Virus record (IMG/VR): IMGVR_UViG_2627853869_000007
Reading direction: 5' to 3' (one strand)
Length of the DNA stretch: 33,541 bases
Source of the DNA: a virus
Taxonomy: Duplodnaviria; Heunggongvirae; Uroviricota; Caudoviricetes
The notes beneath the pieces were generated by a model. The model ran no database searches, was not told the origin of the DNA, and was given only the letters and a program-made list of their open reading frames with translations. The position numbers and the translations under genes were made by a program. This document shows positions 195 through 32,607 of the stretch, piece after piece; position 1 is the first letter of the stretch, and each line of letters begins with the position of its first letter.

Positions 195-1150
<956 letters not shown>

Positions 1151-1193
1151 TTGAACCGCCCCGGGTTTCCTGGAGAGTGTTTTATCTGTGAAC

Positions 1194-2084
1194 TCAGGCT
1201 GCCAGATCATCGTTTCCGATGGAAGCATAATAAGCTTTTTCTGCTTCTGCCGGAGGGATGTGGCCCAGCCTTTCCAGCAATCGTCGATTATTATACCAGT
1301 CCACCCACGTGAGTGTGGCCAGTTCCACTTCTGCACGGTTTTTCCAGCTCTTACGGTGTATTACCTCCGCTTTGTAAAGACCATTGATGCTCTCCGCCAT
1401 CGCGTTGTCATACGAGTCGCCTGTACTTCCTGTTGATGCCAGTAATCCGGCTTCCTTAAGCCGCTGTGTGTAGGCCAGCGATACATACTGAGAACCTTTA
1501 TCACTGTGATGGACCGTGCCGGACGGTCGACGGGCCCATAACGCCTGCTCCAGTGCATCCAGCACGAATGTCGTCTCCATGGACGATGAGACCCGCCACC
1601 CCACGATGTATCCGGCAAACACATCAATGATGAACGCCACATAGACGAAGCCCTGCCATGTGCTGACGTAAGTAAAATCAGCCACCCACAGCTGGTCAGG
1701 TCGTTCTGCCACGAACTGACGGTTTACGCGGTCGCCTGCGGCAACGGCTTTCCGGCTGATGGTCGTACGGACCTTTTTACCCCGGAGAACACCGGCAAGT
1801 CCCATAACCGCCATGAGACGTGCCACAGTGCATCTGGCCACTCTGATGCCTTCCCGTAACAACTGACGCCAGACTTTACGCACACCGTATACCTGATGAT
1901 TCCCATCGTATACGCGCAGTATCTCTTTCTTCAGCCAGTCATCGCGCTGCGCACGGGCACTGCGTTTATCAGGATGATGTCGCTGTTGCTGACAGTGGTA
2001 ATACGTTGACGGGGCAATATGTAGTTCACTGCATACCGGTCCGACCCCGTACAGCTTACGCAGCTTATCCAGCAGTGGCATCAC
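1194..2084 (-). CDS. IS629-like transposase OrfB (DDE integrase domain)
   Basis: 296-aa ORF with IS3-family DDE region ([11 protein letters not shown]...HHSDKGSQY...[13 protein letters not shown]). Confidence 0.85.
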
Positions 2085-2407
2085 TTTTTCCAGAGGCGGT
2101 CGAACTCCGCCTTCGCAAAATAAGCGGAAGCCTGGCGAAGGATATCGTTACTGCGGCGCAGTTCACGATTTTCACGTTCCAGCTCTTTCAGACGCTGACG
2201 TTCAGCGGTGGTGAGCCCGCCATCACCGCCTCCGGTATCCCGCTCATGCTGGCGTACCCAGACACGCAGAGTCTCCGGTGTACAGCCAATCTTTGGGGCA
2301 ATGGAACAAATTGCCGCCCACTGTGAGTCATATTCGCCCTGACTTTCCAGAACCATACGAATCGCCCTCTGACGGACTTCGGGGGAAAAACGAGTATTTT
2401 TAGTCAT
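2081..2407 (-). CDS. IS629-like transposase OrfA (HTH and leucine zipper)
   Basis: 108-aa [29 protein letters not shown]...; overlaps orfB by 4 nt as in IS3-family frameshift pairs. Confidence 0.85.
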
Positions 2408-2473
2408 CCTGTTTACCTCTTTCTCAGGGAGTTTAGTCTCCAGGATTCCCGGGGCGGTTCAAATGACTCCAAC

Positions 2474-2977
2474 TTACTGATAGTGTTTTATGTTCAGATA
2501 ATGCCCGATGACCTTGTCATGCAGCTCCACCGATTTTGAGAACGACAGTGACTTCCGTCCCAGCCTTGCCAGATGTTGTCTCAGATTCAGATTATGTCGC
2601 TCAATGCGCTGAGTGTAACGCTTGCTGATAACGTGCAGCTTTCCCTTCAGGCGTGATTCATACAGCGGCCAGCCATCCGTCATCCATACCACGACCTCAA
2701 AGGCCGACAGCAGGCTCAGAAGACGCTCCAGTGTGGCCAGAGTGCGTTCACCGAAGACGTGCGCCACAACCGTCCTCCGTATCCTGTCATACGCGTAAAA
2801 CAGCCAGCGCTGACGTGATTTAGCACCGACGTAGCCCCACTGTTCGTCCATTTCAGCGCAGACAATCACATCACTGCCCGGTTGTATGCGCGAGGTTACC
2901 GACTGCGGCCTGAGTTTTTTAAGTGACGTAAAACCGTGTTGAGGCCAACGCCCATAATGCGTGCACTGGCGCGACAT
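2474..2977 (-). CDS. insB: IS1 transposase InsB
   Basis: 167-aa ORF ...[52 protein letters not shown]..., the IS1 InsB sequence. Confidence 0.9.
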
Positions 2978-3171
2978 CCGACGCCATTCATGGCCATATC
3001 AATGATTTTCTGGTGCGTACCGGGCTGAGAGGCGGTGTAAGTGAACTGTAGTTGCCATGTTTTACGGCAATGAGAGCAGAGATAGCGCTGATGTCCGGCA
3101 GTGCTTTTGCCGTTACGCACCACGCCTTCAGTAGCGGAGCAGGAAGGACATCTGATGGAAATGGAAGCCAC
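2896..3171 (-). CDS. insA: IS1 InsA
   Basis: 91-aa [43 protein letters not shown]..., the IS1 InsA zinc-finger protein; A6C frameshift motif TTAAAAAACTC present. Confidence 0.9.
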
Positions 3172-3442: not shown

Positions 3443-4018
3443 TTATCTAACATATTTAACTGTTAAACTTATAATTTTACCAATTATTTCAATGTCTTCT
3501 ATCTTACATTCGAAGGCTCTGTTTCCACCCTCGACGAAGATTCTTCCACCGGGTAAACGAGTAATGTCACGGATCGTTACTTCGCCATCAATACTTATTA
3601 CCCATTTACCATCACGTATGTCATCAAATTCTTTATCACAAATAAATTCAGAATTGTTATCTGTGATGACAAAAGGTTTTTTAAACGTAGAGGGTAGAAA
3701 TCCCTTATCAAAAATATAAAAACCGTCTTCACGCAAGGCACCATCAGATAATACATATTTAGCAACTTCCATAGTATTTGTATTACCTGAAGTTTGCTTT
3801 GAACCATGTCCGGTTGTGAGCCAATTAAGCGAGGTGCCCGTTTCAAGGGCGCACTGGATTACCCATTCTGCTGGGAATGAGTCACGCATGTAGCGTGTGG
3901 CGAGTGTACTTTTAGAGATTCCTAAATGATCGCACAACGCCTGTCGAGTCTTGAATCCATAAGCTTCTACCATGCGCTCTATGGCGCCTCGTCCGCCTTT
4001 CTCCAAATTCATGGTCAC
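3443..4018 (-). CDS. cI: 186-type CI immunity repressor (N-terminal HTH, C-terminal CI-like domain)
   Basis: 191-aa ORF with EAYGF...LCDHLGISKSTLATRYMRD...CALETGTSLNWLTTG and C-terminal ...IRDITRLPGGRIFVEGGNRAFECKIEDIEIIG pattern resembling phage 186 CI; divergently transcribed from the apl-like gene. Confidence 0.7.
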   Translation of the reverse strand: MTMNLEKGGRGAIERMVEAYGFKTRQALCDHLGISKSTLATRYMRDSFPAEWVIQCALETGTSLNWLTTGHGSKQTSGNTNTMEVAKYVLSDGALREDGFYIFDKGFLPSTFKKPFVITDNNSEFICDKEFDDIRDGKWVISIDGEVTIRDITRLPGGRIFVEGGNRAFECKIEDIEIIGKIISLTVKYVR

Positions 4019-4035: not shown

Positions 4036-4064
4036 CTTGACGATTTCACTGTGCAATCGTATGT
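4036..4064 (+). promoter_or_regulatory. putative early rightward promoter (TTGACG-17 bp-TATGTT) with overlapping near-palindromic operator 4040-4058
   Basis: TTGACG at 4036-4041, 17-bp spacer, TATGTT at 4059-4064; spacer is the imperfect palindrome CGATTTCACTGTGCAATCG; lies in the cI/apl divergent intergenic region. Confidence 0.35.
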
Positions 4065-4137
4065 TTATGGTGTTCACAAAATACAAACGATCCGTATTCG
4101 TCCTGATTAATCATCATTAAACGAGGAATGTTGCATC

Positions 4138-4359
4138 ATGAGACCTAACATTTCAATCACTCTTACCACGCCTCATGTGACTATTGAACGCTATAGCGAG
4201 CTGACAGGGCTATCCATCGATACCATCAATGACATGTTGGCTGATGGACGCCTTATCCGTCACCGTCTGCGCAAAGATAAAAAACGCGAAAAAGTGATGA
4301 TCAACATAGCAGCAATGACCGTTGATGCGCTTTCAGAATGCAATCTAAACCTTAATTAG
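4138..4359 (+). CDS. Apl/Cox-like small HTH protein (putative excisionase / early regulator)
   Basis: 73-aa ORF with HTH-like segment [21 protein letters not shown]; first gene of the rightward early operon opposite cI. Confidence 0.5.
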
Positions 4360-4385: not shown

Positions 4386-4571
4386 TTGACCATGTTTGAT
4401 TACCAAGTTTCCAAACATCCACATTTTGATGAAGCCTGTCGTGCATTTGCACTGCGCCACAATCTGGTGCAACTGGCAGAACGTGCAGGCATGAATGTGC
4501 AGATTCTGCGGAACAAGCTGAACCCAGCTCAGCCTCATTTATTAACCGCACCAGAAATCTGGCTGCTTTGA
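4386..4571 (+). pseudogene. cII: CII-like regulator, N-terminal 60 codons only; truncated by IS911
   Basis: [24 protein letters not shown]...[16 protein letters not shown] resembles the 186 CII N-terminus; the stop codon TGA at 4569-4571 is the first 3 nt of the IS911 terminal repeat. Confidence 0.7.
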
Positions 4572-4640
4572 AGTGGCACACTGAATTTGGCCACCTGAAC
4601 AGAGGTGATATGCTCACCTCAGAACAACACAGGTGCTCCA

Positions 4641-5809
<1,169 letters not shown>

Positions 5810-5817
5810 CCACTTCA

Positions 5818-6457
5818 CGCCAGAGTTTTATTTGAGATCGCAAACAGGGAGGTGGCTTATTACAACATAAGGCAGGAGTTTAATTACTCAACTGAAATTA
5901 CTGATTTCATGAAAGCGGTATATTTCCTGTATCTCAATCGTCACGGTTACCGTGGTTTATGTCGCTATAACAAGAGCGGGCATTTCAACATTCCCTACGG
6001 CAATTATAAAAATCCGTATTTCCCTGAAAAAGAAATTCGCGCATTTGCAGAAAAAGCCCAGCGAGCAACGTTTATCTGCGCCAGCTTTGATGAAACGCTG
6101 GCGATGTTGAAGGCGGGGGATGTGGTGTATTGCGATCCACCGTATGACGGTACGTTTTCCGGCTATCACACTGATGGTTTCACTGAAGATGACCAGTATC
6201 ACCTAGCATCCGTTCTTGAACATCGGTCATCAGAAGGACATCCGGTCATTGTTTCTAACAGTGACACATCCCTGATCCGTTCGCTGTATCGCAATTTTAC
6301 TCACCACTATATCAAGGTAAAACGCAGCATCGGTGTGGCAGCTGGCGAGGGTAAATCAGCAACAGAAATCATTGCTGTTTCCGGGCCGCGCTGCTGGGTG
6401 GGATTTGATTATTCGCGTGGCGTGGATAGTTCTGCCGTGTACGGAGTACGTGCATGA
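5818..6457 (+). pseudogene. dam: Dam-type N6-adenine DNA methyltransferase, 5'-truncated (N-terminal SAM-binding region missing)
   Basis: Translation ...YYNIRQEFN...[19 protein letters not shown]...VVYCDPPY... matches the middle and C-terminal parts of Dam including the DPPY motif; the open frame begins inside the IS911 terminal repeat. Confidence 0.7.
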
Positions 6458-8868
6458 GCCATGCCGATATGAACAACTGCTGCGGCTTTAACGAGGCTGC
6501 CGCAGCGTTCTCATGGAACAGCCCGAAAAAGGCCATTAACCCTTATCTGGACCCGGCGGAAGTTGCGCCGGTTTCTGCGCTTTCAAACCTGATCACTCTG
6601 TACGCTGCCGATAACGAGCAGGAACAGTTGCGCCGCGAGGCACTGAGTGATCAGGTCTGGGAGCGTTATTTTTTTTATGAATCACGTGATCCTGTCCAGC
6701 ACGAAATGGAGCAGGATAAGCTCATTAGCCGGGCAAAGCTGGCGCATGAGCAGCAGCGTTTTAATCCGGATATGGTCATTCTGGCGGACGTCAACGCCCA
6801 GCCTTCCCATATCAGCAAGCCGCTGATGCAACGTATTGAATACTTCAGCAGCCTGGGCAGGCCAAAGGCTTATTCCCGCTATTTACGTGAGACGATTAAG
6901 CCATGTCTGGAACGACTGGAGCATGTACGCGACAGCCAGCTATCTGCATCTTTTCGTTTTATGGCAAGCCATGTAGGGCTGGACGGCCTGCTGATTCTGC
7001 CTGAAATGAGTCAGGATCAGGTGAAACGCCTGTCTACCCTTGTCGCTGCGCATATGAGCATGTGCCTTGATGCAGCTTGTGGTGATTTGTATGCCACCGA
7101 TGACGTTAAGCCAGAAGAAATCCGCAAGACATGGGAAAAGGTGGCAGCGGAAACCCTGCGTCTGGATGTCATCCCGCCTGCGTTTGAGCAACTCCGTCGG
7201 AAAAGAAACCGCCGTAAACCCGTGCCCTATGAACTCATTCCGGGTTCGCTGGCGCGTATGTTGTGCGCCGACTGGTGGTACCGGAAATTATGGAAAATGC
7301 GTTGCGAATGGCGGGAAGAGCAGTTGCGTGCTGTCTGCCTGGTCAGCAAAAAAGCATCTCCCTATGTCAGCTATGAAGCCGTGATGCATAAACGTGAGCA
7401 GCGCCGCAAGTCATTGGAGTTTTTCCGTTCTCATGAACTGGTGAACGAAGAGGGCGACACGCTGGATATGGAAGACGTGGTAAACGCCAGCAGCAGCAAC
7501 CCGGCGCACCGCCGCAATGAGATGATGGCCTGTGTTAAAGGTCTGGAGCTTATCGCGGAAATGCGCGGTGACTGCGCCGTTTTCTACACCATTACCTGTC
7601 CGTCACGTTTCCATTCCACGCTCAATAACGGCAGACCAAACCCAACCTGGACAAATGCGACGGTAAGACAAAGCAGCGATTATCTGGTCGGCATGTTTGC
7701 TGCATTTCGTAAGGCGATGCACAAAGCCGGGTTGCGCTGGTATGGCGTGCGGGTGGCTGAGCCGCATCATGACGGTACAGTTCACTGGCACCTGTTGTGT
7801 TTTATGCGCAAAAAAGACCGCCGCGCCATTACTGCATTGTTGCGTAAGTTTGCCATCCGTGAAGACCGCGAGGAACTGGGTAATAACACTGGTCCACGCT
7901 TTAAATCTGAGCTGATAAACCCGCGCAAAGGAACGCCGACAAGCTACATCGCGAAATACATCAGTAAGAACATTGACGGGCGTGGTCTGGCTGGCGAGAT
8001 CAGCAAGGAAACGGGTAAATCCCTGCGTGATAACGCTGAATACGTTAATCCCTGGGCGTCTCTGCATCGTGTTCAGCAATTCCGCTTCTTTGGTATTCCA
8101 GGGCGTCAGGCTTACCGTGAACTGCGGTTGTTGGCTGGTCAGGCGGCAAGGCAGCAGGGTGACAAAAAAGCAGGTGCGCCGGTACTGGATAACCCGCGCC
8201 TTGATGCCATCCTGGCTGCTGCTGATGCTGGCTGTTTTGCCACCTACATTATGAGGCAGGGCGGCGTGCTGGTTCCTCGCAAATATCACTTGATCAGAAC
8301 CGCTTATGAAATCAATGAAGAGCCGACCGCCTATGGCGATCACGGTATTCGTATTTATGGCATCTGGTCACCCATTGCAGAAGGCAAGATCTGCACTCAT
8401 GCAGTGAAGTGGAAAATGGTTCGTAAAGCCGTTGACGTTCAGGAGGCGGCAGCCGACCAGGGCGCTTGCGCCCCTTGGACTCGTGGCAATAACTGTCTCC
8501 TTGCTGAAAATTTGAACCAACAGGAGAAAGATAAATCAGCTGATGGGAACCCCAGAACGGACATTACCAGCATGGATGACAAGGAGTTGCACGATTACCT
8601 GCACAGTATGAGCAAAAAAGAGCGCCGGGAACTGGCAGCAAGGTTACGCCTGGTGAAACCGAAACGGCGTAAAGACTACAAACAGCGAATTACAGACCAT
8701 CAGCGACTGCAGCTCGTGTATGAGCTGAAGTCCAGAGGATTTGATGGCAGCGAGAAAGAGGTCGATTTACTCCTTCGCGGAGGCAGTATTCCGTCAGGAG
8801 CAGGCCTGCGTATCTTCTATCGGAACCAGCGTTTGCAGGAAGATGATCAGTGGCGGAACCTGTATTAA
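6454..8868 (+). CDS. A: P2-family replication initiation endonuclease GpA (HUH rolling-circle initiator)
   Basis: 804-aa ORF with HUH-type motif TVHWHLLCF and tyrosine motif [12 protein letters not shown]; start ATG overlaps the dam stop (ATGA). Confidence 0.85.
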
Positions 8869-8962
8869 TTACGCGGGTTAACAATTCGTGCTCTTAATAA
8901 TACCAGGCATATCAGGCTGATGAACGTAAAAAAACGTTTTACATCAGTAAGATTATTATATG

Positions 8963-8978
8963 CTGTAAATATAAACAG
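8963..8978. promoter_or_regulatory. LexA (SOS) box CTGT-N8-ACAG
   Basis: CTGTAAATATAAACAG, a 16-bp match to the CTGT-(AT-rich)8-ACAG SOS-box pattern, about 45 bp upstream of the RBS-preceded ORF at 9022. Confidence 0.55.
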
Positions 8979-9021
8979 TGGTTATGCATACAGTATTGCG
9001 TGTGGTGTCATAGGAGGAAAG

Positions 9022-9210
9022 ATGCAGGACTATTTTTTGGAGTCTTTGAAGCTCCAGCGCATTGATTTTTTTCTTAAGCTTGTAGCGGCTAGTGAGTGTA
9101 GTGATGAAGAGAAGGGGCTGGCTCTGCAGTGGGTTTCTGAATTGACTGATGAACTCATGGCAAAAATCAGAACCCACGAATACAACCGCTCAATGGATGT
9201 CATCAGCTGA
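9022..9210 (+). CDS. small hypothetical protein (62 aa), possibly the N-terminal part of a 186 Tum-like antirepressor module
   Basis: ATG at 9022 preceded by AGGAGG; position between gene A and the DinI-like gene. Confidence 0.45.
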   Translation: MQDYFLESLKLQRIDFFLKLVAASECSDEEKGLALQWVSELTDELMAKIRTHEYNRSMDVIS

Positions 9211-9230
9211 GGTGACTTTTATGCGCATTG

Positions 9231-9454
9231 AAATAATGATCGATAAAGAGCAGAAGATTAGCCAGTCTACCCTGGACGCTCTTGAATCCGAGCTTTACCG
9301 CAATCTGCGCCCTCTGTATCCCAAAACGGTAATTCGTATCCGCAAAGGTAGCTCTAACGGTGTGGAACTTACTGGATTGCAACTGGACGAAGAAAGAAAA
9401 CAAGTGATGAAAATTATGCAGAAGGTGTGGGAAGACGACAGCTGGCTGCATTAA
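9231..9454 (+). CDS. DinI-like protein
   Basis: 74-aa ORF MRIEIMIDKEQKISQSTLDALESELYRNLRPLYPKTVIRIRKGSSNGVELTGL...VWEDDSWL, the DinI family pattern. Confidence 0.75.
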
Positions 9455-9589
9455 GAAACGTTGCTGGCGTCTGAACTAGCTTCTGGCGTCAGCAAGGTTG
9501 AACAACGAGCCCTTGCGAGGCGTTAGCTCTGTAGTGCATGTCTATGCCGCATGAGATCGCATGATCGTTTGAGGATCGTTTTTGCTAAG

Positions 9590-9614
9590 GCCCGCCAGAA
9601 CTGGCGGGCTTTTG
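9590..9614 (+). terminator. rho-independent terminator after the DinI-like gene
   Basis: GC-rich hairpin GCCCGCCAG/CTGGCGGGC followed by TTTTG. Confidence 0.6.
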
Positions 9615-9656
9615 CGTAGATCATGCAGGTGCATGAAAACCTCTACATAAAGCGGG

Positions 9657-9675
9657 CAGGCGTGGCGGGGATACG
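9657..9675. other. cos-like sequence (candidate cohesive-end site)
   Basis: GGCGTGGCGGGGATACGAT resembles the 19-nt P2/186 cohesive-end sequence as I recall it (GGCG(A/T)GGCGGGGAAAGCA-); first 13 nt identical to the 186 version; recalled, not searched. Confidence 0.35.
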
Positions 9676-9746
9676 ATTGCGCGCTAGGTATAAGTGTGTA
9701 AAATAATTCCAAAATAAATCATCACTAATGAAGTGAGAGGGTAATA

Positions 9747-11396
9747 ATGTTAGTCAAGAAAAATAAAAATTATAGTTTATATTTTTTAATTACAAATAAT
9801 CAACAGATATCTGATTCTGGTAATTATATAAAAATAGTCCCATCAAGAAGCGATTGGAATGATTTTGGATATTTGAGTAGAGTCGAAATATCTATTTTTA
9901 ATAAAAAAGAGTGTAAGGATATAATTTCACTGAATGGTTATATTGGTTTTTTGAATTCAGAGGAGGAACGAAATGGAAAAGCAGAACTGATAAGGCGAGT
10001 GAAGAAAAAGGAAGAATCTAATTTAAAGGATGAGGGGTTTAATGATTATTTTGTCATGCTTCAGGATATGAATAATTATCGAAGACTAGTAAGATTTTTT
10101 GGGGTGAATGAATCCAAATATATATTAAATTTCATTAATGATGTTGTTTCTAAGAAAAGTGACGCTAGTGCAGAGAATTTGAGGAAAAAAGCAATCTCTT
10201 CTGATATCTTTAATAAATCTTTCATTAGAGAGTCTGAGTCGTATTTTACTTTCAAAAATGCAGGAACAGTTCTTTCCGGTATTCAATATGAGGAGTTGGG
10301 TAATTTATCACAGCACATCAAGATTAGCTATTCGAATAAAGTTAATGAAGAAGATGTATCTTATGTTTTTAATTTTGATCACGAGCATGATTTACCAAAA
10401 AGAATTTCCATAATTATAGGCGAGAATGGTGTAGGAAAAAGCCAAACGCTTAGAGAAATCGCATTGGCTGCGATTAAAGGAAAGGATAATTTGGTGGCTG
10501 TAGTTGATTCTAACGGTGTGAGCATTGAAGAACGAATTCAAATTAGTAGGCTCATTGCTTTTTCTCCAACAAATGAAAGTAAGTGTTCATTTCCAACCGA
10601 TAAAAGAATAAAATCATTGATATGGTACAAAAGATTGACTTTAAATCGTGAATCAAAATCCAAATTAAACTTGAATGATTTAATAGTGCAACTAGCGAGG
10701 AGTAACGACGCTATCGGCTATAATCAAAGGTGGAATATATTTGTTGATGCACTGAGTGTTCTAAATAGTAACAACGATTTAGTAATCAAATGTGGCGGTG
10801 AAAATTCACCATTTGTTAAATTAAATGAGCTTAATTCTCGAGGCGAAGAATCTAGACTATCATTATATTCTGAAATTATTCTCTCTGGCGAGCCTTTGAG
10901 GCTTATTGAAAATAAATGTTACCCTTTGAGTAGTGGGGAAATATCGTTTATTAAGTTTTGTGTACAAGTCTGTTTGTATATTGAGAATGGGACTCTTCTA
11001 TTAATAGATGAGCCAGAAACACATCTCCATCCTTCATTTATTAATAAATTTATGGCATTGCTTGATAATTTATTAGAAAAGACAGGCTCTTCAGCTATCA
11101 TAGCAACGCATTCGGTTTATCTTGTTCGGGAGGTTTTTAAGGAGCAAGTGACAATACTCAGAAGACGAGATGATGGGGTAATTGTTAGCGAAAAACCGAG
11201 ATTGAGTACTTTTGGGGCGAATATAGGAAATATCTCATATTTTGTTTTCGGTGAGAGTGAACCAACTCAAATTTTAAATAAAGTAAAAAACAATATAATT
11301 GCAAAGAATATGTCTTGGGATGATGTTGAATCTAAATATAGCGAGGACTTATCACTTAATGTATTAACTGCGTTGAGAAATGAAATGGGCAATTGA
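9747..11396 (+). CDS. ABC-type (AAA_15/AAA_21-like) ATPase with an unassigned ~215-aa N-terminal domain; candidate defence ATPase (Septu PtuA-like architecture)
   Basis: 549-aa ORF; Walker A GENGVGKS (Lys231, nt 10437-10439), signature-like LSSGE (394-398), Walker B LLLIDEPETHLHP (D421-E422), H-loop IATHS (H455); AT-rich and Asn/Lys/Ile-rich unlike flanking phage genes. Confidence 0.7.
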   Translation: MLVKKNKNYSLYFLITNNQQISDSGNYIKIVPSRSDWNDFGYLSRVEISIFNKKECKDIISLNGYIGFLNSEEERNGKAELIRRVKKKEESNLKDEGFNDYFVMLQDMNNYRRLVRFFGVNESKYILNFINDVVSKKSDASAENLRKKAISSDIFNKSFIRESESYFTFKNAGTVLSGIQYEELGNLSQHIKISYSNKVNEEDVSYVFNFDHEHDLPKRISIIIGENGVGKSQTLREIALAAIKGKDNLVAVVDSNGVSIEERIQISRLIAFSPTNESKCSFPTDKRIKSLIWYKRLTLNRESKSKLNLNDLIVQLARSNDAIGYNQRWNIFVDALSVLNSNNDLVIKCGGENSPFVKLNELNSRGEESRLSLYSEIILSGEPLRLIENKCYPLSSGEISFIKFCVQVCLYIENGTLLLIDEPETHLHPSFINKFMALLDNLLEKTGSSAIIATHSVYLVREVFKEQVTILRRRDDGVIVSEKPRLSTFGANIGNISYFVFGESEPTQILNKVKNNIIAKNMSWDDVESKYSEDLSLNVLTALRNEMGN

Positions 11397-12367: not shown

Positions 12368-13402
12368 TTAAGTAGCTAGTTTATAACTATCAAATTTAAC
12401 AATGTTCTCACTTACCAATTTATTTATTTCCATCATTCTTTTTTGTAACGGTATTAACTCGTTACGTACAAACTCCAGGCTCGCCTTCTCCACATCCCCA
12501 AACCCCCCGACATTATTAGGCATAATCCCCATCATTTGCGGTGGCACACGATGCGCCGCCATCATGTCATCCCGGCTCACGTTCTTGATGTTCAGAAACT
12601 CATCCTTCGCCGCGACTTCTGACAACGGGATGATCTGAAGCCCGTCCTTTTTGCCGTTAGGCGAGTACATAAACAGATTGCGGAAGTTACCTGGTCCTTT
12701 GGCGCTTTTCATCGCATTGCGGAGGTTGTTCACATCCTCCTGGTTTTGCGCGGCATCGGTCATGTACATGATGAAGCCTGCATGACTGCCGTTAATGTAA
12801 TACTATCGGCGGAACAGCGTGGCGGACTCGTTGAGCAGGGCTGACGGAATGGCAGAAAGGTAACCTGGCAGGCCGTAGATCTCTTGGTTGATGTCCGGTT
12901 CCATCAGATGAAAGATGCTTCCTTTCGTGAACTGATACGGCTGCGTGGTCATGCCGTATTGCACAAACCAGTAGGTATCCAGGTCTAATCCGCGTCGGGT
13001 GTATTTTGCCAGAGCAGGCTCAAGAGCGATGACCTCTCCGAACCGGTTTGTGCGTTTCTCCAGGTAAGCGTTACCAAATACCAGATAATCCTGCACAAAA
13101 CGTGAAAAAGCCTGCTGGCTGAGCAGCGGGTGAGGGATGTAGGTACTGATCAGAATGTTGCATTTCACCGCAATTGGTGAACTGTGATGCACGGCGGCGC
13201 GGAAGGTGCGCGCCAGTCCGTCAAAACTCACTGGCGGCTCATACCAGCGATCTGTCTGTACGCATTCCACATAGTCCAGTAGTTCACGGCGGTCCAGAAC
13301 CGGAACGGGATCGCCGAAGCTGAATGCTTCGGCTGAAGTCTGGTTTTTATGCTGGGTCTGTTTCGTCGCCGCAGCGCGGTTCTTCTTACTCTTTCCCATC
13401 AA
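12368..13402 (-). pseudogene. Q: portal protein GpQ interrupted by a single in-frame amber (TAG) codon at 12803-12805
   Basis: ORFs 12803-13402 and 12368-12769 are in the same frame; read through the TAG they give a continuous 344-codon portal-like protein (...ATLFRR*YYINGSHAGFIMYMTDAAQ...). Confidence 0.8.
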
Positions 13403-30921: not shown

Positions 30922-32607
30922 TTATCCTAATCCTGGCCATACCATGACGATGATTGTCCCTGCCAGCGTCAGCAGGACGTTGGCGATTGCGTAGGTGCCC
31001 GCATAGCCCAGCGCAGGGATGTTACTGTGAGCTGTATCACTGATGATCTCCATTGCCGGCGCGCAGGTGCGTGCGCCCATCATTGCGCCGAACAACAGTG
31101 CGCGGTTCATTCGCAATACATAAGCACCGAACAAGAAACAGATAACCACGGGCACAAGACTGACAATTAATCCGGCAATCAACATCTGACCGCCAATCGC
31201 GCCCAGGCCGTTATTAATACCGCTACCGGCGCTCAGACCAACGCCTGCCATAAACACCATCAAGCCGAACTCTTTCACCATGCTTAATGCACCTTGCGGA
31301 ATGTAACCGAAGGTCGGGTGGTTAGCACGCATAAAGCCCAGCATAATTCCGGCGAATAACAACCCGGCAGCGTTCCCCATGCCGAAACTGAATGTGCTGA
31401 ACTGGAAGGTGATCATCCCGATCATCAGCCCAATAACAAAGAAGGCGCAAAATGCCAGCAGGTCAGTGACCTGGCTGTGAATCGAGATAAAGCCGATGCG
31501 ATCGGCGATGGTTTTTACGCGACGGGCATCACCGCTGACTTGTAAAACGTCACCTTTGTTAAGCACGACGTTGTCATCTATCGGCATCTCAATCTGGCTA
31601 CGAATGACGCGGTTAAGGAAGCAACCGTGATCGGTCAACTTCAGTTGTGCGAGACGTTTACCTACAGCGTTATGGTTTTTAACGACCACTTCTTCAGTGA
31701 CGATACGCATGTCGAGAAGGTCACGATCGAAAACTTCTTTACCGTTACGGAAGCTGGGATCGAGTCGGGCATGGGCGTCGGGATAGCCTACCAACGCTAT
31801 TTCATCGCCCATTTGTAGCACGGCATCACCGTCTGGATTTGCCAGAATCCCGTTACGTCGAATACGTTCAATGTAGCAGCCGGTTTGTCGATAAATACCC
31901 AGTTCACGCAGATTTTTGCCGTCGGTCCAGGCCACCAGCTCCGGGCCGACGCGATAGGCGCGGATCACCGGTAAATAAACCTTACGGTTGGCATCAGTGT
32001 CCAGGCCACGTTCGCGGGCGATTTGCTGGGCGCTGGTCTGTAAGTCCTGATGCTGCAATTTCGGCAAGTAACGCGCACCAACAATCAAACTCACCAGACC
32101 GATTAAATAGGTTAAGGCATACCCGAGGCTCAGATTATCCAGTGCCAGTGAGAGCTGCCTGCTTTCCATGCCGGAATGACGCAGTGTATCGCCAGCACCG
32201 ACCAGAACCGGTGTCGACGTCATAGAGCCTGCTAACATACCGGCCGTCAGGCCAATATCCCAGCCAAACAGCTTACCTAACCCTAAGGCGATCACCAGCG
32301 CACTGCCAACCATCACCAGTGCTAACATTAGGTAATTTTTCCCATCGCGAAAAAAAATGGAAAAAAAGTTCGGTCCGGCTTCGACCCCGACGCAGAAAAT
32401 AAACAGCATAAAGCCAAGATTAAGCGCATCGGTGTTAATGCTGAAATGTTGTTGGCCTAATAACAGCGATACGACTAAAACGCCAATGGAATTACCCAGT
32501 TGGATCGAACCAAGTCGTAACTTTCCGAGACATAGCCCAAGCGCGAGGACCACAAATAATAACAGAATGTAATTCCCATTTAACAATTCGGCGACGTTTA
32601 TATTCAC
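30922..32607 (-). CDS. ybjL: YbjL putative transporter (host)
   Basis: 561-aa [58 protein letters not shown]..., the E. coli YbjL sequence. Confidence 0.9.

Follow-up and report, generated by a model that had tools for sequence, protein, structure and literature searches.

A probable LexA-controlled two-gene tum operon in a defective prophage of the Fels-2/186 type

The tum locus and its prophage setting

The window, i.e. the whole 33,541-nt stretch of DNA that we analysed, is a prophage of the Peduoviridae (P2/186-like, Fels-2 type). Its replication gene A lies at positions 6454–8868 (PF05840, E 8e-128) and is followed on its 3′ side, after a gap of 152 nt, by two small genes that mark the site of the SOS module considered here. 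The first, tumA (9022–9210, plus strand), begins with ATG 9022, ends with TGA 9208–9210 and encodes a protein of 62 aa, a predicted antirepressor to judge from its homologues, a match to phrog_698 and published deletion primers for the prophage DuoHS (see below). The second, tumB (9221–9454, plus strand), runs from ATG 9221 to TAA 9452–9454 and encodes a DinI-like protein of 77 aa (PF06183, E 6.6e-23). The genes are in different frames with a 10-nt spacer between them, and each has its own ribosome binding site (RBS) on the plus strand: AGGAGG at 9012–9017 for tumA, which is invariant in a four-way alignment, and GAGGTG at 9209–9214 for tumB, which is held by the spacer, overlaps the tumA stop codon and is likewise conserved in the four-way comparison.

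An earlier note on this DNA, made from its letters only, had described an RBS-led 62-codon ORF and, in another frame, a DinI-like gene, at a site directly downstream of gene A and equivalent to that of tum in phage 186. Each of these points was borne out: the gene A product ends at 8868, and the position of the module immediately downstream is syntenic with Fels-2, 186, PSP3, DuoHS (a prophage of E. coli HS) and UPEC-245U. The same pair of a 189-nt and a 234-nt gene is found in E. coli HS, in UPEC-245U and in many phages. Compared with its nearest intact relative (L012, a prophage of E. coli UPEC-245U), the module of the window has four differences in 878 nt.

The longest version of the tumA frame would start at ATG 8920. 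We rejected this start because the 34 codons that it adds lie across the promoter and operator and lack conservation in homologues; conservation in the TumA family begins exactly at MQDY (ATG 9022), and in those homologue gene calls that extend further upstream, the extra residues are translated operator sequence and show no conservation. At the other end of the operon, an RNA fold of 9452–9625 placed a probable intrinsic terminator at 9587–9613 (plus strand), with a GC-rich stem (GCCCGCCA / UGGCGGGC) followed by UUUU; a consensus terminator scan does not report it, as its T-run has just four residues. A long hairpin (9457–9499) lies between tumB and this terminator. Another hairpin, at 9199–9216 over the RBS of the dinI-like gene, looked terminator-like in the scan and was dropped, its fold z-score being only −1.15. 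An Rfam scan of 8700–9800 returned nothing credible.

The same element also encodes a cognate immunity repressor of the 186 type, the presumed target of TumA. Its cI gene (3443–4018, minus strand) specifies both the Phage_CI_repr and the Phage_CI_C domain (PF07022, E 2.8e-33; PF16452, E 5.4e-29), and the product is 32% identical to 186 CI and 96% identical to DuoHS CI. A pR-like early lytic promoter lies at 4037–4065, and a small ORF at 4138–4359 occupies the cox/apl position.

The prophage is defective and degraded. Only 61 codons of cII are left before an IS3-family element, dam has no N-terminus (Pfam profile positions 87–253 only), and the genes between cII and dam, from fil through the dam N-terminus, are absent by reference to UPEC-245U and DuoHS. 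A stop codon interrupts the portal gene, and IS3-family and IS1 elements occupy the integrase region. Given this degradation, the function of induction cannot be completed in cis, and no phage would be produced from the window. The earlier note mentioned neither the defective state of the prophage nor the second, overlapping LexA box described below.

The predicted LexA operator and promoter

The earlier note had pointed to a well-formed SOS box, CTGTAAATATAAACAG, at 8963–8978. In its bare form, CTGT-N8-ACAG, such a motif says little: the window has one match against 0.45 expected, and at least one match occurred in 36 of 100 shuffles. We therefore built a LexA weight matrix, 20 bp in length, on the basis of 27 SOS boxes of E. 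coli from the compilations of Lewis (1994) and Fernandez de Henestrosa (2000). With this matrix the box held up. Extended to 20 bp, box 1 (TGCTGTAAATATAAACAGTG, 8961–8980, plus strand) scored 22.1 bits (heterology-type index 5.3), above the median of the training sites themselves (20.0 bits); it is the top LexA site of the 33.5-kb window, and none of 200 shuffles attained its score.

The second-best site of the whole window lies directly beside it. Box 2 (CAGTGGTTATGCATACAGTA, 8976–8995, plus strand) scored 14.1 bits; its 16-bp core (8978–8993) has one base in common with the core of box 1, and its left half is a degenerate GTGG, as in the tandem operators of colicin genes. Box 1 was kept in nine other related loci that we compared. 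Tandem boxes in the same register, with a box 2 of 10.5–19.2 bits, were found in Fels-2, vB_EcoM-813R9, SopEPhi, ST13-OXA48phi12.1, ST437-OXA245phi4.1 and Yersinia phage MLG42, and this register was kept although the surrounding non-coding sequence has diverged. A single strong LexA box is present in 186, PSP3, ESSI-2 and ESSI2_ev015. On these alignments and scores, the boxes at 8961–8995 form a predicted colicin-type tandem SOS operator that is conserved across the Fels-2 lineage.

The likeness to colicin operators is close. A 51-nt stretch of the Fels-2 operator, used as query, matched more than 1000 plasmid records; about eight of these, the best matches, were prophage-like and in large records, and the remainder were mostly small mobilizable plasmids. 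In the two plasmid records that we opened, the match lay just 5′ of the colicin N gene and of a gene for a colicin-like pore-former (whose operator we label ‘E1-like’ here). Both operators align base for base with the window through both boxes (81–85% identity over ∼47 nt) and in identical register, CTGT-N8-[AC]CAG|TGG-N8-ACAG. The colicin double boxes differ in that they precede a toxin gene and are carried by small plasmids, and that their flanking promoter hexamers are differently placed. In the colicin systems, binding of two LexA dimers to the double box results in tight, late expression (PMC2994835). The likeness between the colicin and the Fels-2 operators could reflect common descent or convergence.

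A generic σ70 scan of 8700–9800 returned no promoter, and so we assigned the promoter from conserved hexamers and from the annotation of 186. Eight of ten other related loci have TT[TC]ACA, then 17–18 nt of divergent spacer, then TACTGT, and the GenBank record of 186 marks the equivalent hexamers as the −35 and −10 of promoter p95; in PSP3 the −35 is a weaker TTCCCA. In the window, the corresponding p95-type SOS promoter would have its −35 hexamer, TTTACA, at 8938–8943 and its −10 hexamer, which the alignments place at 8961–8966 (both on the plus strand), within the left half of box 1, so that the LexA operator lies over the −10.

This −10 hexamer reads TGCTGT, with an A-to-G change at position 8962. 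Every relative compared has TACTGT; the G was unique among 11 loci and is one of the four differences from the UPEC-245U prophage. An exact search of representative genomes with the G-allele operator gave no match. In a σ70 −10 element no base matters more than the A at −11, and for this reason G8962 may be a promoter-down allele.

TumA, TumB and the split form of tum

TumA is nearly invariant among its closest relatives: 61 of 62 residues (98.4%) are identical to Fels-2 STM2728, and 61 of 62 to ECHS_RS04495 of E. coli HS. It matches no Pfam or NCBIfam family, and BLASTP gave no alignment of TumA with either 186 Tum or PSP3 TumA. The relation to Tum emerged at the profile level. In hhalign, the TumA alignment matched residues 3–44 of 186 Tum with a probability of 94.9% (E 4e-8, ∼19% identity). 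A bridging member of the family, P0147, is 54% identical to TumA (E 4.5e-9 database-wide) and can itself be aligned pairwise with 186 Tum (41% identity, E 7e-11). The PHROG families cross-match as well, TumA hitting phrog_698 (E 3.6e-38), phrog_8554 and, weakly, phrog_1993, 186 Tum hitting phrog_1993, phrog_8554 and phrog_698, and PSP3 TumA hitting phrog_1993. The link to PSP3 TumA was the weakest (hhalign E 0.0038, probability 8.7%). Taken together, the profile comparison, the bridging protein and the PHROG cross-matches identify TumA, at the level of sequence, as a homologue of the N-terminal, antirepressor half of 186 Tum. Similarity of the 62-aa ORF to antirepressors, on which the earlier note had made its proposal depend, was thus found.

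The TumA family is large, with 484 matches in a database clustered at 90% identity and 66 representatives at 50% identity, and almost all of its members are stand-alone proteins of 55–75 aa. An alignment of 30 sequences yielded the motif M-D-x3-E-x5-R-I-x11-C-x10-W-x2-E-L-x3-L. The AF2 model of TumA (mean pLDDT 87.5) is a two-helix hairpin formed by helices 2–23 and 28–61, with the conserved Cys26 in the turn. A sequence-profile search of the PDB with TumA returned nothing, and Foldseek with the AF2 model returned generic α-hairpins only (best E 1.3). In databases the homologues are called ‘hypothetical protein’ nearly everywhere, or else ‘levan regulatory protein’, and the PHROGs entry for the family reads ‘unknown function’.

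TumB is readily placed. It scored 81.3 bits against PF06183 (gathering cutoff 24.2) over profile positions 1–63 of 63, which makes it a member of the DinI family, and it is 78% identical to PSP3 TumB, 41% identical to residues 71–145 of 186 Tum and similar to E. coli DinI (PDB 1GHH, E 2.7e-6). Against the NCBIfam DinI equivalog NF007893 it reached only 42.7 bits, below the cutoff of 111, and we thus regard it as a phage DinI-like paralogue rather than as the chromosomal dinI. When the products of 9022–9454 are compared with 186 Tum, as the earlier note had suggested, TumB is therefore recovered by BLASTP, whereas TumA is missed by BLASTP and recovered by hhalign. Together with the 186-type CI, these two homologies support the description of the locus as a 186 Tum-like module.

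Genetic evidence comes from DuoHS, the prophage of E. coli HS in which Ortiz de Ora et al. constructed an in-frame ‘tum’ deletion (Nat Microbiol 2025, PMC12055606; preprint PMC11195241). Both this deletion and a lexA(Ind−) allele abolished mitomycin C-induced lysis and viral foci (PMC12055606). The junction primers of the deletion correspond to the reverse complement of GTGGTGTCATAGGAGGAAAGATG-TGA and to ATAGGAGGAAAGATG-TGAGGTGACTTTTATGCGCATTG, and their flanks match the window exactly at 9002–9024 and 9208–9230. The exact match of these flanks means that the ‘tum’ deleted in DuoHS is precisely the 62-codon ORF, and the deletion spares the DinI gene and its RBS. The operator region of DuoHS differs from that of the window by a few bases. 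In a module 98% identical to the one studied here, it has accordingly been shown in the literature that tumA and a cleavable LexA are both required for induction by mitomycin C.

As to the two separate ORFs, the earlier note had offered a two-protein variant or a frameshifted tum; the former stood and the latter fell. The window does not encode the single 146-aa Tum fusion, and one might suppose that its ORFs are a 186-type tum broken by a frameshift or nonsense mutation, i.e. a pseudogene, given that they lie in different frames 10 nt apart, that the homologous parts form one 146-aa polypeptide in 186, and that the surrounding prophage contains other pseudogenes. We give this reading virtually no credence. 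The split form, with an RBS for each gene, is present in PSP3, Fels-2, DuoHS and hundreds of other loci; dozens of phages have, at 84–100% protein identity, a 62-aa upstream gene followed by a DinI gene with its own RBS and ATG, and of 5426 complete E. coli genomes, 1281 (about a quarter) contain the 878-nt module. Among the 66 family representatives, no long match carries a C-terminal DinI-like extension, and in most of these long proteins the TumA-like part lies at the C-terminal end. The PSP3 pair is annotated as tumA/tumB, and Lemire et al. (PMC3121763) treat the split in Fels-2 and PSP3 as the normal arrangement, with the upstream gene as the antirepressor. A frameshifted 186 tum is effectively refuted by this conserved split form with its own RBSs, and we assign the window, with its two ORFs in separate frames and with separate RBSs, to the PSP3/Fels-2 tumA/tumB subtype. 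It may even be 186 that departs from the rule. Within the 186 tum gene, the DinI part still has an RBS and a GTG start of its own, which points to the fusion as derived, and ESSI-2-type phages have a LexA box and tumA but lack a DinI gene; the two observations suggest an ancestral modular form of tum, with the 186 fusion as a derived outlier.

Two further readings accept two intact ORFs and differ from ours on what they do. In one, the effector would be the DinI-like protein alone, a RecA modulator or moron, and the 62-aa ORF would be unrelated to Tum and have no antirepressor role. The missing Pfam and NCBIfam family, the mostly uninformative names of the homologues and the failure of BLASTP against 186 Tum are what one would expect in that case. 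We consider it very improbable, however, in view of the profile-level homology of the 62-aa ORF to the antirepressor half of Tum, the retention of LexA box and tumA in ESSI-2-type phages that have no DinI gene, and the loss of induction in DuoHS when exactly this ORF is removed and the DinI gene is left intact with its RBS; moreover, non-polar dinI deletions in Gifsy prophages were without effect on induction (PMC3121763). The other reading takes the module as an inert relic, with its promoter silenced by the −10 A-to-G change and the prophage beyond induction. A substitution that is unique among 11 loci and hits −11 of a conserved hexamer speaks for it, as do the IS3 element in cII, the missing fil-to-dam N-terminus segment, the internal stop in the portal gene and the IS elements in the integrase region. 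We nevertheless think it rather unlikely, because cI and the two ORFs with their RBSs and the pair of LexA boxes are all intact, with only four substitutions in 878 nt relative to the intact relative; transcription could also use alternative hexamers (e.g. TATGCT with a 15-nt spacer) or read through from gene A. Since no lytic cycle is possible from the window and the −10 probably carries a down-mutation, the module may be weakly expressed here, or active only in trans.

Proposed mechanism and comparison with known systems

We conclude that the region of this Fels-2/186-type prophage is, with high probability, an SOS operon of two genes under LexA control, in which TumA is an antirepressor that acts on CI. 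In the undamaged cell, two LexA dimers would occupy the tandem operator at 8961–8995 and so mask the p95-type promoter at its −10 hexamer and start site. Upon DNA damage, RecA-stimulated cleavage of LexA would free the promoter, giving a predicted transcript from ∼8973 to the terminator at ∼9613 and, from it, TumA and TumB. TumA would then bind CI and keep it from binding its operators, and the early lytic promoter near 4037–4065 would be derepressed. The probable role of TumB is to bind RecA filaments and to modulate the SOS signal, in keeping with the GenBank record of 186, which says of the short Tum forms ‘modulates SOS induction’; for induction itself TumB would be dispensable.

The repressors of phages that share TumA offer a hint as to which part of CI is recognized. 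In phages whose TumA is at least 98% identical to that of the window, CI is only 38–56% identical overall to the window CI. Its N-terminal helix–turn–helix (HTH) domain is 59–100% identical in these phages, with the common block SKST[LM]A[TN]RY[LM]RD[ST]FPA[ED]W[VI]IQCALETG, whereas identity in the C-terminal domain falls to 24%, a divergence as great as that of 186. Over 13 phages, with pairs that are not independent, TumA identity was correlated with CI N-terminal identity at a Spearman coefficient of 0.85 and with C-terminal identity at 0.26. From these comparisons we tentatively raise the possibility, which we hold to be less probable than its opposite, that one TumA could serve many immunity types by way of the conserved N-terminal HTH domain of CI; shared ancestry combined with recombination of the CI C-terminal domain could produce the same pattern. 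In the accessible literature we found no statement that TumA contacts the DNA-binding domain of CI or serves several immunity types. If TumA did so, DNA damage could lead even a defective prophage of this kind to induce, in trans, heteroimmune Fels-2-like prophages residing in the same cell, and the colicin-type tandem operator for LexA would make this trans-induction depend on a high level of damage.

As a system, the module is already known: it is the device by which, in textbook manner, prophages of the 186/Fels-2 type respond to SOS induction, and the form seen here is very common. What it adds is, in part, an annotation gap, an antirepressor for which Pfam and NCBIfam have no model and which is a ‘hypothetical protein’ in the RefSeq records that we inspected; BLAST cannot see the homology between TumA and 186 Tum, which accounts for the failure of the annotation to spread. 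Its value lies further in the tandem operator, in the unusual −10 hexamer and in the covariation of TumA with the CI N-terminus. The tandem operator, like the combination of a single Tum with many CIs, bears on the coordination of induction in polylysogens.

Among named systems, DuoHS is the closest. Its ‘tum’ ECHS_RS04495 and the DinI-like gene ECHS_RS04500 follow gene A in the same order and under the same tandem LexA boxes as in the window, and both prophages lie in the same chromosomal neighbourhood, next to ybjL. DuoHS is intact and inducible and has the −10 hexamer TACTGT, whereas the copy in the window is ridden with IS elements, has TGCTGT and carries different cargo 3′ of the DinI gene. 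Fels-2 likewise has a two-gene tum (STM2728/STM2726.1) after gene A, with a LexA box and the same tandem operator; its CI shares ∼70% identity with the window CI in the N-terminal domain and ∼25% in the C-terminal domain. We considered whether STM2726 of Fels-2, equal in length to orf97 of 186, might be a homologue of it that was lost in the window; BLASTP showed no similarity between the two. In PSP3, tumA/tumB form a two-gene tum after gene A under a LexA box, as in the window; there the LexA box is single, and the sequence relation of TumA is marginal.

Phage 186 itself has tum at the same site after gene A, with a LexA box over the −10 hexamer TACTGT. In its Tum, the antirepressor segment is N-terminal and the DinI-like segment C-terminal, an order that matches the two genes of the window, and the CI of 186 has the same two Pfam domains. 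Tum of 186 inhibits the DNA binding of CI, according to the GenBank annotation of 186 and to papers that cite Shearwin et al. (1998), e.g. PMC3121763. The differences lie in the form of the product, one 146-aa fusion from which internal starts also give the DinI part alone, as opposed to two proteins in the window, and in the operon, which in 186 has one LexA box and orf97. A functional parallel is provided by the Gifsy-1, -2 and -3 prophages, whose small antirepressors GfoA and GftA are expressed from a LexA-repressed promoter, are co-transcribed with a dinI homologue and inactivate non-cleavable repressors (PMC3121763). In contrast to the operon of the window, dinI comes first in these lambdoid phages, the antirepressors are unrelated proteins, and the repressor belongs to a different family.

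The tumA start, the -10 hexamer and the DinI-like partner

Some gene callers start tumA, the antirepressor gene of the LexA-controlled operon (62 aa, 9022-9210), at an upstream in-frame ATG at 8920, which yields a protein of 96 aa. The extension (8920-9021) is an annotation artefact, because it represents translated promoter and LexA operator sequence and is not conserved. Likewise, the name 'levan regulatory protein', which some sources give to the tumA product, appears to be without basis.

Within this promoter, the window carries an A-to-G change of its own at position 8962, which converts the conserved TACTGT to TGCTGT. The altered hexamer is the p95-type -10 element (named after the 186 promoter p95), and it also flanks LexA box 1 on the left. 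The equivalent position was A in all ten other loci examined, and an exact search for the G allele in the representative-genome collection returned no match.

The tumA gene is not always accompanied by a DinI-like gene such as tumB (9221-9454 in the window). In phage ESSI2_ev015 (locus positions 1380-1713) and Cronobacter phage ESSI-2 (1383-1680), a homologue of tumA (41-49% identical) occurs with a single LexA box, and the DinI-like gene is absent from both loci; the antirepressor therefore exists apart from its usual partner.

The repressor CI of two other phages showed a further variation. In PSP3 (cI at locus positions 7-867) and Klebsiella phage Kp4860-7 (22-861), the reading frames encode 286 aa and 280 aa, respectively, and the N-terminal HTH domain is present in two tandem copies, both preceding the C-terminal domain. 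The DNA-binding module of these repressors is thus duplicated.

Decay of the prophage and its chromosomal site

In the region 4386-6457, an IS3-family element (orfA, 4605-4943; orfB, 4970-5809) cuts cII off after 61 codons. The expected int region to the left of cI (203-3171) is occupied by IS elements instead: here the IS3-family orfB occurs a second time (203-1042), together with a further IS3-family transposase (1194-2084) and IS1 (InsB, 2474-2977; InsA, 2896-3171). The fil, DUF5347, DUF2732 and TraR/DksA genes, which are present in intact relatives, are missing from the window, and dam lacks its N-terminal third, covering Pfam profile positions 87-253 only. An internal stop codon divides the portal gene (12368-13402, minus strand) into two shorter ORFs (199 aa and 133 aa); therefore, the prophage cannot produce particles. 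At the other end, ybjL lies at 30922-32607, which places the element at the chromosomal site that prophage DuoHS occupies in E. coli HS.

The hairpin and the cargo slot downstream of the SOS operon

Directly past the DinI stop codon lies a strong hairpin (9457-9499) with a core stem of 11 bp and no T-run, for which Rfam gave no match. The whole 9452-9625 stretch folded better than its shuffles (z -3.1), and in PSP3 tumB is likewise followed by a similar non-coding stretch.

On its downstream side, the SOS operon is directly adjoined by a candidate two-gene anti-phage system (9747-12261, plus strand), both genes of which have PADLOC matches. The first protein is an AAA_21/PtuA-like ATPase of 549 aa (PDC-M01A, E 3e-55) and its partner has 293 aa (PDC-M01B, E 1e-33); the two genes overlap by 17 nt. 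In the closest intact relative, from E. coli UPEC-245U, the partner gene is annotated as an HNH endonuclease. The pair occupies a variable cargo slot, which lies between the DinI and portal genes and in which the related phages Fels-2, DuoHS, 813R9 and SopEPhi, in contrast, carry other genes.
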